From NCBI RefSeq assembly GCF_055900595.2, contig NZ_CM148325.1: 64,000 nucleotides of DNA, one strand, 5' to 3'. Made by a program: the position numbers and the translations under genes. Each line of letters opens with the position of its first letter. Position 1 is the stretch's first letter. The notes beneath the pieces are model-generated. The model had not been told where the DNA came from and searched no databases. It worked only from the letters and a program-made list of their open reading frames with translations. Shown piece after piece: positions 1-17,889 of the stretch.

Positions 1-756
1 TTCGGTCGCTTTATGTATCAGACACTGAGTACAGAAAATGTTGATACACGTTATATGTCTCTTGATCCTCAACATCGCACCTCAATTGTGGCTGTAGGAC
101 TTGATGAGCAAGGAGAAAGAAACTTTACCTTTATGGTACGCCCAAGTGCCGATCTTTTTTTACAACCTGATGGCCTTCCTGCATTTGGGCCGGGTGAATG
201 GCTCCATCTTTGTTCCATTGCGCTCAGTGCAGAACCTTCCCGAAGTACCGCATTTCTGGCTATGGAGAAAATACGTCAGGCTGGCGGAAACATCAGTTTT
301 GATCCCAATATCCGCAGCGATCTCTGGCAGAGTGAAGCGCTATTAAGGAAATACCTTGATCGCGCACTTTCGCTGGCGAATATCGCTAAATTGTCCGAAG
401 AAGAGTTGCTATTCATCAGTGGCGAAAGCCAGGTTCAGCAAGGCGCATATTCATTAGTACAACGTTATTCGTTGACTTTATTGCTTATCACACAAGGAAA
501 AAATGGCGTACTTGTGTATTTTCAGGGGCAGTTTATCCACTATCCCGCCAAACCTGTTTCTGTCGTCGATACGACCGGGGCAGGAGATGCTTTTGTCGCT
601 GGATTACTTGCCGGTCTGGCTGATTCTGGAATACCAACAAATACCAGACAGCTTGAACGAATCATTGTACAAGCTCAGATTTGTGGTGCTCTGGCGACCA
701 CGGCTAAAGGCGCGATGACCGCCTTACCCCGACAACACGATCTCCCTTCACAATAG
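1..756 (+). CDS. scrK: Fructokinase (ROK/PfkB-type sugar kinase), C-terminal part; 5-prime end lies outside the window
   Basis: Frame-1 translation from position 1 (FGRFMYQTLST...DTTGAGDAFVAGLLAGL) matches the fructokinase ScrK/CscK family and continues upstream of the window; sits at the head of the scr gene cluster. Confidence 0.8.
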   Translation, partial: FGRFMYQTLSTENVDTRYMSLDPQHRTSIVAVGLDEQGERNFTFMVRPSADLFLQPDGLPAFGPGEWLHLCSIALSAEPSRSTAFLAMEKIRQAGGNISFDPNIRSDLWQSEALLRKYLDRALSLANIAKLSEEELLFISGESQVQQGAYSLVQRYSLTLLLITQGKNGVLVYFQGQFIHYPAKPVSVVDTTGAGDAFVAGLLAGLADSGIPTNTRQLERIIVQAQICGALATTAKGAMTALPRQHDLPSQ

Positions 757-806
757 TGATCCTGCTGTTGTATCTGTAACCCGATTTGTCGTGCCTGTCA
801 CATTTA

Positions 807-881
807 CTAAATCGGTTTAGCGAAAATAATTGCTTTGGCTAAAAAGTCAGCTTTATTATCAACACCTAAACCGGTTTAGCA
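807..881. promoter_or_regulatory. Two direct copies of CTAAAYCGGTTTAGC (807-822 and 866-881), the second containing the perfect 12-bp palindrome TAAACCGGTTTA; candidate LacI-family (ScrR) operators in the scrK-scrY intergenic region
   Basis: Palindromic repeats read directly in the sequence, about 45-115 bp upstream of the scrY start codon; assignment to ScrR is inferred from context. Confidence 0.4.
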
Positions 882-923
882 TTTTAGCAATTTTTATAAT
901 TCTCTGATGGGACGCGACAAATT

Positions 924-2441
924 ATGTATAAAAAAACAACTTTGGCAGTGTTAGTTGCTTTGCTGACCGATGCTACAACGGTACATGCGCAAACGGATAT
1001 TAGCAGTATCGAATCTCGACTGGCGGCGTTGGAACAACGTTTAAAAAATGCGGAATCCCGCGCCCAGGCGGCAGAAGCAAGGGCCAAAACAGCTGAATTA
1101 CAGGTTCAGAAACTGGCTGAAACACAACAACAAAATCAGCTAACAACTCAAGAAGTAGCACAGAGAACAGTTCAGCTCGAACAGAAATCCGCAGAAAACA
1201 GTGGTTTTGAGTTTCATGGCTATGCCCGTTCCGGGTTACTGATGAATGATGCCGCTTCCAGTAGCAAAAGTGGGCCGTATCTGACTCCCGCAGGTGAAAC
1301 TGGTGGAGCTGTTGGCCGTCTGGGAAATGAAGCCGATACCTATGTCGAGTTAAATGTAGAACATAAACAAACACTGGATAACGGTGCGACCACACGCTTT
1401 AAAGCAATGTTGGCTGACGGACAAAGAGATTACAACGACTGGACTGGCGGCTCCAGTAACCTGAATATCCGACAGGCTTTTGCCGAACTGGGCGCATTAC
1501 CAAGTTTTACCGGAGCATTCAAAGACAGTACTGTCTGGGCTGGTAAACGCTTTGATCGCGACAATTTTGATATTCACTGGTTAGACTCCGATGTCGTATT
1601 TTTAGCGGGAACGGGCGGCGGTATCTATGACGTAAAATGGAACGATACATTTCGCAGTAACTTTTCTCTCTACGGACGTAATTTCGGCGATCTTGATGAT
1701 ATCGACAATAACGTTCAGAATTACATCCTCACCATGAATCATTATGCAGGCCCCTTCCAGTTGATGGTTAGCGGATTACGGGCAAAAGATAATGATGATC
1801 GAAAAGATGCCAATGGTGATCTCATTCAAACTGATGCTGCAAATACTGGCGTACATGCGTTAGTTGGTCTGCACAATGACACTTTCTATGGCCTGCGTGA
1901 AGGGACGGCAAAAACAGCACTGCTATATGGCCATGGCCTGGGTGCGGAAGTCAAAGGGATTGGCTCCGATGGCGCCCTGCTGTCTGAGGCGAATACCTGG
2001 CGCTTCGCATCTTACGGCACAACACCTCTGGGAAGCGGTTGGTATGTCGCACCAGCAATTCTCGCACAAAGCAGTAAAGATCGTTACGTCAAAGGCGATA
2101 GCTACGAATGGGTGACCTTCAATACACGTCTGATCAAAGAGGTAACACAGAATTTTGCTCTGGCCTTTGAGGGTAGCTATCAATATATGGATCTGAAACC
2201 AAAGGGGTATCAAAACCACAACGCCGTAAACGGCAGCTTCTATAAACTCACCTTTGCTCCAACTCTAAAAGCTAACGATATCAATAATTTCTTTAGCCGT
2301 CCGGAGCTTCGCCTGTTTGCCACCTGGATGGACTGGAGCAGCAAACTTGATGATTTTGCCAGCAATGACGCTTTCGGCAGCAGTGGTTTCAATACTGGCG
2401 GAGAGTGGAATTTTGGTGTCCAAATGGAAACCTGGTTTTAA
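924..2441 (+). CDS. scrY: Sucrose-specific outer-membrane porin (LamB/maltoporin family) with N-terminal signal peptide
   Basis: 505-aa ORF; signal peptide [22 protein letters not shown] followed by a coiled-coil extension and porin body ending in W-F, typical of ScrY; position in the scr cluster. Confidence 0.85.
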
Positions 2442-2501
2442 TACCAGACAGCCTCACAGATGTGAGGTTTTTACTGAAATAACAATGAATTAGAGGGTTA
2501 T

Positions 2502-15985: not shown

Positions 15986-16310
15986 TTTCTGAGCCTGTAA
16001 AACGGATGGGACACAATCTGAAAAGCATAAAAGTTGTGATGTTGTGTATCAAGTCTTGTTTTTGTCCGGGATGAATGTTGTTTACAATATCATCGGCAGT
16101 GGTTTTTCATGAGAATGAAAATTTATCTTTATCTGCATTCCGGTGTATTGTGAATTGTCGGCTGAAACAGCATATTAATCGATTTTTTTAGGGGAATGGT
16201 GCTGAAATAACGACATGATGATGATTTATATTACAGGTATCAAAATTGTTAGCGGTCCATAACGGTGTGATGTTTTGAGATTGTTTACAGATGCAATATT
16301 AAATATTTTG

Positions 16311-16352
16311 ACAAAAAACAAAAAACAAAAAACAAAAAACAAAAAACAAAAA
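16311..16352. repeat. Perfect heptanucleotide tandem repeat (CAAAAAA) x 6
   Basis: Read directly: c-aaaaaa repeated six times from 16311 to 16352, between the integrase stop and the start of the divergently placed hypothetical gene. Confidence 0.9.
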
Positions 16353-16446
16353 ATATCTAAAAATAAAGCATGAAAACAAAATTCCTCCGGACCTGGAGGC
16401 CGGAGGAGAACTTGTGGATTGAGAGAAAATATCAGAACAAGTGTTC

Positions 16447-17637
16447 TTAACCCTGACTCTCTTGCCTGGAAAGCGAATCAATGTAATCTGCGTACCATTG
16501 CATCATTTCACGGCGACCATCGAGATACTGGGCATGATTATAGGTACCCCTGATGGCGTTTTTATCCACATGAGCTAACTGCATTTCAATCCAGGCAGAA
16601 TTAAAGCCCTGTTCGTGCAGAATGGTACTCATGGTGTGACGAAAACCATGACCGGTTGCCCTGCCATCGTAACCGATACGTTTGAGCACCATATTGATGC
16701 TGGCTTCGCTCATTGGCTTGTTGATATCACAACGTCCCGGGAAAACCAGCCGGTATTGTCCGGAGAAAGTTTTGAGCTGCAGCAGAATGTCAGTGGCCTG
16801 TCGTGACAGTGGTACGACATGTTTACGTCGCATTTTCATGCGGCTTTCAGGGATTGTCCACAGGGCATTATCAAAATCAATTTCTGACCATTCAGCGGAC
16901 CGTAGTTCAATCGTTCTGAGGCCTGTCAGAAGCAGCAGATTTGTCGCCATGCGGGTAACAGGACTGCCATGATACTCAGCGAGCTTCCGGAGAAAAACAG
17001 GGAGCTCATCTGCTCTCAGGTGGGGGAAATGTGCAGCTTTTGGCGCCGCCAGCGTACTGGTCAGTTCAGATGCCGGATTGACAGTGGCTCGTCCGGTGGC
17101 GATGGCATAACGAAAAATCTGATTACAGTATTGACGCACCTTACGAAGTTTTTCCAGCGAGCCACGTTTTTCTATGCGGCGCAGAATTTCCAGCATTTCC
17201 AGCGGGAGGATATCCGTAACGCTTCGTTTGCCCAGATACGGGAAAATATCTTTATCCAGCGCTTCCAGTACGCTTCTGGCGTAACTTTCAGACCATGACA
17301 AAGATTTATGCTGGTGCCATTCCGTAGCGAGGGCATGGAACGTATTGGTGGCAGAGATTTTCTGAGTGAGTTTTTCCTTTCGCTTCTTTTCGCCCGGGTC
17401 ACCACCTTCGGAGATGATTTTTCGGGCATCGTCGCGTTTGATTCTGGCCTCAGCAAGGGAGACGTCGGGATAGACGCCGAGGGCCAGTTTTTTCTCTTTT
17501 CCTGCTATCCGGTATTTAAGCCGCCAGTAGCGGGCACCCGTGGTTTTTACCAGCAGATATAAACCACGTTCGTCAGAGAGTTTATAGTCTTTTTCTTTAG
17601 GTCTGGCTGTTTCGACCTGTCTGGCTGTAAGTGCCAT
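16447..17637 (-). CDS. int: P4-family tyrosine integrase (site-specific recombinase) of the pheV island
   Basis: Start placed at MALTARQVETARPKEKDYKLSDERGLYLLV (AGGAG RBS upstream); arm-binding N-terminus and C-terminal catalytic region with R…HxxR…Y-type residues (GHGFRHTMSTIL…AHV…RGTY); lies next to the tRNA 3-prime end. Confidence 0.85.
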   Translation of the reverse strand: MALTARQVETARPKEKDYKLSDERGLYLLVKTTGARYWRLKYRIAGKEKKLALGVYPDVSLAEARIKRDDARKIISEGGDPGEKKRKEKLTQKISATNTFHALATEWHQHKSLSWSESYARSVLEALDKDIFPYLGKRSVTDILPLEMLEILRRIEKRGSLEKLRKVRQYCNQIFRYAIATGRATVNPASELTSTLAAPKAAHFPHLRADELPVFLRKLAEYHGSPVTRMATNLLLLTGLRTIELRSAEWSEIDFDNALWTIPESRMKMRRKHVVPLSRQATDILLQLKTFSGQYRLVFPGRCDINKPMSEASINMVLKRIGYDGRATGHGFRHTMSTILHEQGFNSAWIEMQLAHVDKNAIRGTYNHAQYLDGRREMMQWYADYIDSLSRQESQG

Positions 17638-17813
17638 ATGGGGGCTCCTGAAACTGACTGAACACAATGAGCCCCCACCGGGGCCCCCAATGAACGCTTG
17701 ATTGAGAGAGAGTTCAGTAGAGTCTGGTGGAGTTCAGAATGTTCAGATTGCTTGTAACGATGTGATTATACTTGAGTTTCGTGGAGTTCGGGAGATGAAT
17801 CTGGAAGTGAAAG

Positions 17814-17889
17814 TGGTGCCCGGACTCGGAATCGAACCAAGGACACGGGGATTTTCAATCCCCTGCTCTACCGACTGAGCTATCCGGGC
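17814..17889 (-). tRNA. pheV: tRNA-Phe (anticodon GAA), full length with CCA end
   Basis: Reverse complement of 17814-17889 is GCCCGGATAGCTCAGTCGGTAGAGCAGGGGATTGAAAATCCCCGTGTCCTTGGTTCGATTCCGAGTCCGGGCACCA; pheV rather than pheU is inferred from flanking yqgA/speC. Confidence 0.9.

Follow-up and report, generated by a model that had tools for sequence, protein, structure and literature searches.

The first 17,813 nucleotides of the stretch of DNA analysed here (64,000 nucleotides of contig NZ_CM148325.1, assembly GCF_055900595.2, henceforth the window) very probably represent the end, next to the tRNA, of a mosaic genomic island at pheV that is not self-transmissible, carries the sucrose utilization (scr) genes as a cargo module and spreads as a unit. 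The region is an ordinary pheV genomic island that carries the common E. coli scr block and, as such, belongs to a known kind. The window ends inside scrK, and the far end of the island, its attR and any excisionase lie beyond it.

An island with a divergent integrase at the 3' end of pheV

The junction of the island with the core chromosome comprises two features:

16447-17637, minus strand: P4-type tyrosine integrase of 396 aa, SMS-3-5 type (Pfam architecture, catalytic motifs)
17814-17889, minus strand: pheV, tRNA-Phe(GAA), whose 3' end provides the attL core (17814 to about 17836)

ARAGORN and Rfam (68.3 bits) agree on this one intact tRNA-Phe gene, and its neighbours yqgA, speC, nupG, mltC and mutY are those of pheV in K-12. 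Identity with K-12 stops 2 nt beyond the CCA end of the gene, and this point marks the island junction. The G+C content of positions 1-17813 is 45.2%, versus 51.1% in the remainder of the window, and about 87 genomes in a collection of 5426 complete E. coli genomes carry the island region (those with at least 80% of positions 1-19500 present). These observations confirm that everything from the window start to pheV is accessory DNA, as the initial annotation had stated. That annotation had seen no repeat of the tRNA 3' end in 1-17813 by eye, and a search of the same interval that tolerated up to 3 mismatches per 20-24 nt did not find a second copy either. The island is variably present among genomes, atypical in composition and modular in its cargo; scr, raf, resistance and restriction-modification modules differ between its relatives.

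The integrase shows the Pfam domain order Arm-DNA-bind_3, Phage_int_M, Phage_integrase. A pattern search located the H-x-x-R motif at residues 330-333, and the remaining catalytic residues (R, the second H and Y) were placed by eye in the translation. The gene lies 176 nt from pheV, on the same strand, and together with the domain architecture this supports its earlier identification as a P4-type integrase beside the tRNA. It is 99.2% identical to WP_001218742.1 (SMS-3-5, KOr019) and 62.9% identical to the integrase of the selC island, while identity to the intP4 of CFT073 is 42.7% at the amino acid level and no match to the CFT073 integrase was found at the nucleotide level. The integrases intP4.1-4.5 form a group whose members share at least 94% nucleotide identity with each other, and that of SMS-3-5 is an outlier among GI-pheV integrases (Nhu et al. 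2024, PMC11537424). The window integrase falls outside this group and is of the divergent SMS-3-5 outlier type, as opposed to canonical intP4.

Extent and spread of the island

The closest full-length relative is found in APEC O2-211, where the island is 99.86% identical over positions 1-16325 and the adjoining core shows 98.1% identity. In that genome, pheV is followed by an island of 64.8 kb, by TTTCATTCCGAGTCCGGGCACCA, by a second island of 57.6 kb with a canonical intP4, and by TTCGATTCCGAGTCCGG-CACCA and yghD; the attR, which matches 22 of 24 nt of the tRNA repeat, is located 64.8 kb from pheV. The core present in the window is of ST73 type, being 100% identical to that of ST73 genomes, and relatives with this core have a different island at pheV, the integrase of CFT073 at this site being a different one. 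None of the 5426 complete E. coli genomes joins this core with this island. In F163 the same 19.7 kb are located beside pheU (99.92% identity), at least 23 carrier genomes have the island with a pheU flank, and CFS3273 and 160-11H1 harbour it at both pheV and pheU, the two copies in CFS3273 having 26.2 kb in common with 99.78% identity. Cores that are unrelated to each other thus hold near-identical copies of the island, at pheV or at pheU. In an island that spreads as a unit, the integrase would recombine the circularized element with pheV or pheU, whose 3' ends are identical, and transfer from cell to cell would depend on helpers, for instance co-resident conjugative elements, plasmids or phage.

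One of the CFS3273 copies contains many indel-type frameshifts that resemble assembly error, and the pheV/pheU double copies might partly stem from gene conversion between resident related islands.

It is quite unlikely that the region is a fixed and immobile patchwork of unrelated insertions, with the integrase as a relic, and that its spread is limited to vertical inheritance and to homologous recombination of large chromosome pieces. An immobile patchwork would fit with the failure to find attR in the part of the island contained in the window (1-17813), with the fact that one third of pheV islands lack attR (PMC11537424), with the H-NS-family gene being a pseudogene, and with the IS and integron debris that adjoins the block in relatives; however, the closest relative, APEC O2-211, keeps its attR, and the integrase is full length, retains its catalytic motifs and is represented by alleles at least 99% identical in 96 records. 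In addition, the block is found at two non-homologous sites, in cores that diverge by about 2%, with an identity between islands above 99.8%, a pattern for which homologous recombination through the flanks cannot account.

The scr genes and their regulation

The sucrose genes occupy the start of the window:

1-756, plus strand: scrK (fructokinase), 3' 248 codons (NF006957, 376 bits)
808-881, plus strand: scrY promoter region with two operator-like palindromes, read from the sequence
924-2441, plus strand: scrY, sucrose-specific outer-membrane porin (PDB 1A0S, 756 bits)
2502-3872, plus strand: scrA, sucrose PTS enzyme IIBC (TIGR01996, 649 bits, cut-off 559)
3872-5281, plus strand: scrB, sucrose-6-phosphate hydrolase (TIGR01322, 545 bits, cut-off 356)
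5307-6314, plus strand: scrR, LacI-family repressor (TIGR02417, 462 bits, cut-off 390)
1-6315 (true span -281 to 6315 in window coordinates): scr module with sharp ends, defined by comparison with ST131
6316-6776: non-coding stretch, present in the scr segment of IncF plasmids and absent from the ST131 locus

The genes scrY, scrA, scrB and scrR are full length, score above the cut-offs of their families and are as long as their counterparts at the scr locus of strain 5506 (ST131). The score of ScrK is below the cut-off of 450, and its match is limited to profile positions 59-302, because the window start cuts the gene; judging from APEC O2-211, which holds a full scrK of 921 nt at the corresponding position, scrK begins roughly 165 nt upstream of position 1, and its first 58 or so codons are outside. 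The earlier description of a complete scr regulon is consequently valid for four of the genes and extends to scrK only if those 165 nt are intact.

The scr pathway is established knowledge from pUR400 and Klebsiella. By analogy, ScrY would admit sucrose to the periplasm, ScrA together with the EIIA-Glc of the host would phosphorylate and import it, ScrB would split the resulting sucrose-6-phosphate and ScrK would phosphorylate the fructose, with ScrR repressing the scr genes until fructose or fructose-1-phosphate is present. The predicted operator palindromes, TAAATCGGTTTA (808-819) and TAAACCGGTTTA (869-880), bracket a promoter-like site (TTGCTT...TATTAT) upstream of scrY, a layout that agrees with the pair of ScrR operators reported to surround this promoter (PMC11251922). 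The same report, on which this account of the pathway also draws, showed that a scr locus cloned from the B2 strain SCU-147 sufficed for growth on sucrose; growth has been demonstrated for a locus with 99% identity (PMC11251922) and would be a prediction for the present strain.

The scr block as a separate module

The block has the same five genes, with identical order, lengths and ends, as the scr locus located between ygcE and queE in ST131 and ST1193 (Stephens et al. 2024, PMC11251922). Identity with the ST131 locus is 99.08% over 6597 nt; it breaks off 1 nt past the stop codon of scrR at one end and 117 nt before scrK at the other. The surroundings of the ygcE-queE locus are free of integrase and tRNA genes, and it replaces about 0.5 kb beside queE, whereas here scr is placed within a tRNA-Phe island. 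The match between the IncF plasmids and the island spans positions -297 to 6776, with 98.8-98.9% identity. While 87 genomes have the whole region, 987 are scr-positive, and most of these show the identical 1-6315 match, as at ygcE-queE in ST131. Furthermore, the islands of FEX669 and 13KWH46 have the same integrase-proximal genes and no scr.

The most likely interpretation of these comparisons is that the scr block joined the island in a separate event, since it is present elsewhere (at ygcE-queE and on IncF plasmids) and some islands that share the integrase-proximal genes lack it. Recombination would have inserted it into a pre-existing island as a discrete unit of 6.6 kb, which would share its lineage with the scr locus that phylogroup B2/F strains have on the chromosome between ygcE and queE. 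Because no 'empty site' for the block was found inside any island, both the insertion and its direction are deduced solely from the shared boundaries. According to the initial annotation, separate insertion events for scr and the integrase would refute its reading, and this is partly the case: scr occurs independently in ST131 and on IncF plasmids and is missing from kindred islands, although the whole island now travels as one unit.

The opposite direction, with the island scr as the ancestral mobile form and the ygcE-queE locus of B2/F strains derived from it, appears unlikely. The G+C content of the block (46.8%, under the 51.1% of the core), the fact that the copies in the island, the ST131 chromosome and the IncF plasmids differ mutually by about 1%, none being plainly derived, and the additional flank that the plasmid copy has in common with the island copy could all be reconciled with it; nevertheless, the form next to queE is much the most frequent, most of the 987 scr-positive genomes giving the same 1-6315 match, and has been reported as lineage-associated ('native') in B2/F (PMC11251922), whereas the island form is rare and scattered.

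Relation to CTnscr94 and other conjugative elements

The initial annotation had proposed a conjugative element of the CTnscr94 type, or a decayed relative. What remains of this proposal is an element that sits at the pheV 3' end and carries scr as cargo, in a family that uses both pheV and pheU, like CTnscr94. The latter, from Salmonella Senftenberg, is said (in work of Hochhut and coworkers from 1997) to be about 100 kb long and to insert at pheV or pheU independently of RecA. Its scr genes resemble those of pUR400, and PTS-type scr genes on horizontally moving DNA are common to these systems and the present one. CTnscr94 targets tRNA-Phe genes and encodes PilL-V and the transfer functions TraI/TraG/TraC/TraD (PMC4458695).

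It is very improbable that an integrative conjugative element of this type, or its remnant, brought scr to pheV. The coincidence of the same two targets, pheV and pheU (PMC4458695), with scr cargo speaks for it, but the window contains neither a relaxase or coupling protein gene nor genes for type IV secretion or pil functions, and the 64.8-kb island of APEC O2-211, delimited by its repeats, has no annotated conjugation genes. Further support could be drawn from the pseudogenized TIGR03756/TIGR03757 conjugative-element genes that SMS-3-5 has downstream of the same integrase type, and from APEC 102026, where an intact SPI-7/ICEEc2-type conjugative element is located at pheV beside an island with a window-type integrase. 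This element is, however, a separate unit with its own integrase of 329 aa, whose best alignment with the window integrase, 24% over 38 aa (E 0.02), is not significant. The element has duplicated a 50-nt part of pheV, the repeat of the window-type island in APEC O2-211 being 22/24 nt, and the window-type island begins after this element, i.e. the two are in tandem and not nested. Finally, ScrY is 77% identical (318/413) to the solved sucrose porin PDB 1A0S, the ScrY of pUR400, and the identity of the scr block to the native E. coli locus reaches 99.1%. A CTnscr94-type element, intact or decayed, is disfavoured on the basis of the absence of transfer genes from the window and from the APEC O2-211 island, the unrelated integrase of the APEC 102026 element and the divergence of ScrY, the distinction from CTnscr94 being made through its description and with pUR400 ScrY as a stand-in.

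The island head and its variable slot

Between scr and the integrase, the pheV island carries the following features:

6866-7340, minus strand: H-NS-family gene, frameshifted (NF008193/NF007656 matches)
7659-8396, plus strand: Tia/Hek-like beta-barrel outer-membrane protein (Pfam OMP_b-brl, 2.9e-20)
8817-9713, plus strand: HTH-WYL regulator (PADLOC WYL, 9e-21; PDB WYL proteins, 2e-3)
9762-12722, plus strand: three ORFs (359, 523 and 88 aa), candidate defence cassette with the WYL regulator (PADLOC)
13125-14798, plus strand: phosphoethanolamine transferase family protein, not of the MCR type (NF028537, 162 bits)
14942-15985, minus strand: TPR-repeat protein (weak TPR/ANAPC3 Pfam matches)
16312-16353: (CAAAAAA)6 tandem repeat between the integrase stop codon and the TPR gene (repeat count)

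With respect to the intact allele of F163, the H-NS-family gene has an extra C at 6974, resulting in a product of 124 aa without the C-terminal DNA-binding part. The Tia/Hek-like gene shows 75-77% nucleotide identity to genes annotated as tia and holds the position of tia in the selC island. For the product of 13125-14798, the scores with NF028537 and with the CptA/EptA families are all below cut-off, and those with MCR models do not exceed 66 bits. Homologues of 14942-15985 are annotated as tetratricopeptide repeat proteins in relatives, and the number of CAAAAAA copies is 6 here, 4 in FEX669 and 2 in APEC O2-211.

The GI-pheV of SMS-3-5 shares the site, the integrase type and a similar attR (TTTTATTCCGAGTCCGGGCACCA, compared with that given above for APEC O2-211), but its first 43 kb contain the raf operon, iha, many IS elements and remnants of conjugative-element genes, and lack both the scr block and the TPR-Ept-WYL-OMP module. 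Canonical GI-pheV islands with intP4.1-4.5 (CFT073, EC958) are equally modular, with a P4-type integrase beside the tRNA, and have direct repeats of 19-23 nt and a far-end yee (CP4-44-like) module (PMC11537424), likewise found in the window-type island of APEC O2-211; they differ in the integrase and the remaining cargo, and no scr has been reported in them. The head of the island is syntenic with that of the ETEC-type tia/leoABC selC island (tRNA, integrase, TPR protein, phosphoethanolamine transferase, slot, Tia-family outer-membrane protein), which is inserted at tRNA-Sec instead of tRNA-Phe and lacks scr. We infer a conserved head of about 10 kb, formed by the integrase, the TPR protein, the phosphoethanolamine transferase, a swappable slot and the Tia-like outer-membrane protein, next to which the variable cargo would be located.

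In the selC island the slot holds LeoABC (Eleos), and here the WYL regulator and PDC-like genes. The ORFs in 9762-12722 match the PADLOC models PDC-M09A (5e-22) and PDC-M40B (5e-42), and none of the three has a match in Pfam or PDB. Positions 8817-12722 may possibly constitute an anti-phage gene cassette, as suggested by these sequence matches, and this candidate cassette is the most novel part of the region.

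An Accessory Island Adjoins pheV

The single tRNA gene called in the window by ARAGORN is tRNA-Phe(GAA), at 17814-17889 (minus strand). It was confirmed with Rfam at 68.3 bits, and the same scan of the entire 64-kb window returned nothing else. The genes to its right (yqgA, speC, nupG, mltC, yggX and mutY) are those of the pheV neighbourhood of K-12, where yghD comes next after pheV. When both sequences were aligned from the tRNA, the match was perfect through CCA plus 2 nt, where identity ends; G+C content is 45.2% in positions 1-17813 and 51.1% in the remaining window. This breakpoint and the difference in composition bear out the proposal of the initial annotation that the DNA up to tRNA-Phe is accessory, and a search of 1-17813 for another copy of the tRNA 3' end found none, as had also been reported there. 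A pheV-adjacent island carrying an integrase and scr genes is therefore confirmed, except for the completeness of the regulon within the window.

Features of the island left of tRNA-Phe
-281 to 6315, scr block (scrKYABR), with scrK cut by the window start
6866-7340, minus strand, H-NS-family gene, frameshifted
left of the four-ORF cluster, gene for a Tia-like outer-membrane protein
8817-12722, four-ORF cluster, flanked by the transferase and outer-membrane protein genes
left of the tRNA, gene for a phosphoethanolamine-transferase family protein
left of the integrase, gene for a TPR protein
16447-17637, minus strand, integrase of 396 aa

The integrase shows the Arm-DNA-bind_3, Phage_int_M, Phage_integrase domain order of the P4 type and an H-x-x-R motif at residues 330-333, the remaining catalytic residues having been identified by eye, in agreement with the P4-family assignment made initially. 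Between its stop codon and the TPR gene there is a heptanucleotide tandem repeat, (CAAAAAA)n (16312-16353), a fast-changing repeat with six copies in the window, four in FEX669 (L007 19977-20004) and two in APEC O2-211 (L001 31312-31325). The phosphoethanolamine transferase was considered as an MCR-type colistin resistance determinant and rejected, since MCR models gave at most 66 bits against cut-offs above 1000. In the H-NS-family gene, an extra C at 6974 (+1 frameshift) leads to a 124-aa product that keeps the oligomerisation part but has lost the C-terminal motif for DNA binding; F163 and CFS3273 carry an intact allele. This gene could be a pseudogene or encode a truncated H-NS antagonist. 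Just right of scrR, a non-coding stretch (6445-6720) is 82-84% identical to unannotated DNA in many O157:H7 genomes and could represent either a dispersed repeat or what is left of an island.

The four-ORF cluster consists of an HTH-WYL regulator followed by proteins of 359 and 523 aa and an 88-aa YkgJ-like ORF. The two proteins match the PADLOC candidate-defence models PDC-M09A (5e-22) and PDC-M40B (5e-42) and showed no relatives in searches of Pfam and the PDB; a literature search on PDC-M09/PDC-M40 gave nothing relevant. The head of the tia/leoABC island at selC is syntenic with the window (tRNA, integrase, TPR protein, phosphoethanolamine transferase, slot, Tia), and in that island the slot corresponding to 8817-12722 is filled by LeoABC, the PADLOC Eleos system (L012 5180-9228). 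The cluster may be an uncharacterised anti-phage cassette, and it is the least understood piece of the region.

The Island Is of Different Ancestry From Its Chromosomal Background

Among public sequences, the pheV region of APEC O2-211 is the nearest relative; it aligns with window positions 1-16325 without gaps and with 23 mismatches (99.86% identity), the integrases showing six differences. Right of the tRNA, the core shares only 98.1% identity with that strain, and its segment 18000-42000 has a 100% match in ST73 genomes, CFT073 and Nissle 1917 among them. CFT073 has a different pheV integrase (42.7% protein identity). Because the island is APEC O2-211-like, the core is ST73-like and the CFT073 integrase is of another kind, these alignments indicate an island foreign to its chromosomal background, with the break located at the tRNA. 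None of the 5426 complete genomes combined the ST73-identical core with the window island. Within the core, the window has no counterpart (around 29697-29766) of the three-gene insertion for a TRAP transporter that separates yggM from hemW in APEC O2-211 and APEC 102026 (L001 44715-47550).

The content left of window position 1 is deduced from relatives only, and in APEC O2-211 two islands lie between pheV and yghD.

Order from pheV to yghD in APEC O2-211
pheV, followed by a 64.8-kb island
64.8-kb island: window-type integrase, window genes, hsdS/hsdM fragments, sodC, sugar-utilisation genes, IS elements and a CP4-44-like 'yee' module
repeat TTTCATTCCGAGTCCGGGCACCA, closing the 64.8-kb island
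second island, 57.6 kb: canonical intP4 integrase at its start, ireA and another yee module
repeat TTCGATTCCGAGTCCGG-CACCA, closing the second island, then yghD

Nhu et al. include the TTCGATTCCGAGTCCGG type in their list of pheV-island repeats (PMC11537424), and the TTTCATTCCGAGTCCGGGCACCA type is one base off repeats in that list.

The Island Occurs at Both tRNA-Phe Genes

In F163, the region from -1813 to 17909 (19.7 kb) is 99.92% identical to the window sequence and is located beside the other tRNA-Phe gene, pheU, adjoining dicD (yjdC), dsbD and cutA. A query including the pheU flank was matched by 23 genomes at 98-100% coverage. Strains CFS3273 and 160-11H1 were in both the pheV and the pheU match lists, at different coordinates. 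Since near-identical DNA is found at two non-homologous sites that have only the tRNA sequence in common, in cores about 2% apart, this two-site pattern is the one expected from integrase-mediated site-specific recombination, and not the one expected from homologous exchange of flanks. Carriers came from chickens, cattle, pigs, dogs, humans and water.

In CFS3273 (NZ_CP026932.2; stretches L010 and L011), a stretch of the scr island of at least 26 kb is present twice, at pheU and at pheV. The two copies have 26.2 kb in common at 99.78% identity, with 11 mismatches and 46 small indels, and the pheV copy has many frameshift annotations resembling assembly or long-read polishing error. Debris of resistance elements (class 1 integron, IS1326 and ISCR2) lies upstream of scr in this strain.

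The scr Block as a Discrete Unit

In the scr family, sucrose enters the periplasm through ScrY and is imported and phosphorylated by ScrA; ScrB is the sucrose-6-phosphate hydrolase, ScrK the fructokinase and ScrR the repressor of the scr genes. ScrA, ScrB and ScrR of the window exceed the curated NCBIfam cut-offs, and ScrY matched a solved sucrose porin with 756 bits. The regulon had been described as complete, which holds for scrY, scrA, scrB and scrR; the window start truncates scrK, of which profile positions 59-302 alone are covered. Two palindromes, TAAATCGGTTTA and TAAACCGGTTTA, flank a promoter-like site upstream of scrY and are putative ScrR operators, their layout being as described for such operators in a study in which a 99%-identical scr locus was sufficient for growth on sucrose (PMC11251922).

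The scr block alone (1-6400) was found in 987 of 5426 genomes and the whole 19.5-kb region in 87, so that the combination of block and island occurs in around 1.6% of complete E. coli genomes. The same match to 1-6315 was obtained in most of the scr-positive genomes listed. In strain 5506 (ST131), ygcE and queE flank the block and neither an integrase nor a tRNA is close by; Stephens et al. describe this scr site for B2/F strains (PMC11251922). The island and strain 5506 loci are 99.08% identical over 6597 nt, and identity ends 117 nt upstream of scrK and 1 nt past the scrR stop codon. The block is also present at around 99% identity in 22 IncF-type plasmids, between IS1 copies, and the plasmid and island forms share slightly more flank (-297 to 6776). 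Conversely, there are scr-free islands with the same integrase-proximal genes: that of FEX669, at pheU, has pgt genes in place of scr, and those of 13KWH46 and APEC 102026 have restriction-modification genes. The middle segment (6400-16300) was present at ≥80% coverage in 287 genomes.

From the block boundaries and this distribution we infer that scr was acquired as a discrete unit by an island already in existence. Separate insertion of scr and integrase, which would depart from the single element initially envisaged, is favoured by the occurrence of the block on its own and of scr-free islands; on the other side, a search for the empty site, with the two island flanks of the block joined, retrieved no record covering ≥80% of the query.

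A Separate Island Family With a Divergent Integrase

The window integrase shares 99.2% identity with WP_001218742.1, the pheV-adjacent integrase of SMS-3-5, also present in KOr019 and APEC 102026, and 62.9% with that of the selC tia/leoABC island. The SMS-3-5 enzyme was reported as an outlier among pheV islands, with around 46% nucleotide conservation (Nhu et al., PMC11537424). By megablast, the window integrase was found at ≥80% coverage in 526 genomes, and 96 records showed ≥99% identity. Thus the 'divergent' integrase of that report defines a separate, widespread island family.

In KOr019, SMS-3-5 and APEC 102026, a raf operon (regulator, alpha-galactosidase, permease, invertase and porin) directly adjoins the window-type integrase (L008 26026-34832; L016 2046-9637; L021 1284-9791). 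A 5'-truncated copy of this integrase adjoins raf in the F-type plasmid pCREC-629_1, which suggests that raf moved between islands with SMS-3-5-type integrases and plasmids.

The Island Is Probably Not a CTnscr94-Type Element

The initial annotation read the island as a likely element of the type of CTnscr94, the scr-bearing conjugative element of Salmonella Senftenberg, or a decayed relative. CTnscr94 is grouped with YAPI, ICEEc2 and relatives, encodes PilL-V and TraI/TraG/TraC/TraD functions, and uses tRNA-Phe genes as insertion sites (PMC4458695). Neither of the two APEC O2-211 islands has an annotated gene for a relaxase, a coupling protein, type IV secretion or a pilus, and ScrY of the window is only 77% identical (318/413) to that of pUR400. 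An intact 78-kb conjugative element of the SPI-7/ICEEc2 type was found in pheV in APEC 102026 (NZ_CP087290.1 1246080-1325654; L020 36081 to L019 19655), ahead of a window-type island.

Order at pheV in APEC 102026
start: pheV, 329-aa integrase, TraI, pil operon
beside pilV: a second site-specific integrase gene, possibly a shufflon recombinase
middle: type IV secretion genes with iha cargo; TraD, topoisomerase III, SPI-7-type DnaB
end: ParB, ParA, copy of the last 50 nt of tRNA-Phe
after the 50-nt copy: window-type integrase, then raf and the TPR-Ept-WYL-OMP module

The 50-nt copy is annotated as 'tRNA-Ser' in RefSeq and was not called by ARAGORN. Since the sequence past it equals that past pheV in the window, the conjugative element is a separate unit, inserted into pheV ahead of the resident island, and its 329-aa integrase has no significant similarity to that of the window. 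The SMS-3-5 island contains pseudogenised TIGR03756/TIGR03757 conjugative-element genes, which raised the option that the window-type integrase came from a conjugative element; it was discarded, given that the APEC 102026 element has its own unrelated integrase and a 50-nt att copy. Compared with CTnscr94 as described, membership would fail on all the features tested except the use of tRNA-Phe attachment sites, which both have in common. The tempting annotation is thus corrected, and scr next to tRNA-Phe does not equal CTnscr94.

Implications for the Spread of Sucrose Utilization

Islands at pheV, P4-type integrases and the scr regulon are each well known; their combination is undescribed in the literature searched, where a search for scr on pheV islands gave nothing relevant, and Stephens et al. 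had no plasmid- or element-borne scr in their own strain collection (PMC11251922). The island represents a third context of the E. coli scr locus, besides the queE locus and IncF plasmids, and a plausible route to fast sucrose use for non-B2 strains, which in many cases come from poultry and livestock; islands as a route of scr into such strains have no description in the literature searched. Beyond the new scr context and the island family, the biology is ordinary.

With respect to mobility, the integrase would recombine the island att with the pheV or pheU 3' end, and cell-to-cell transfer would require a helper. It is conceivable, although we consider it improbable, that islands with SMS-3-5-type integrases are hitch-hikers, sharing the tRNA-Phe site with SPI-7/ICEEc2-type elements, forming tandem arrays as in APEC 102026 and being carried between cells by these elements, with their cargo spread across phylogroups. 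If this were true, the B2 scr locus, otherwise confined to its lineage, would reach further E. coli phylogroups by hitch-hiking, as would the raf operon and the WYL-regulated two-protein putative anti-phage cassette.
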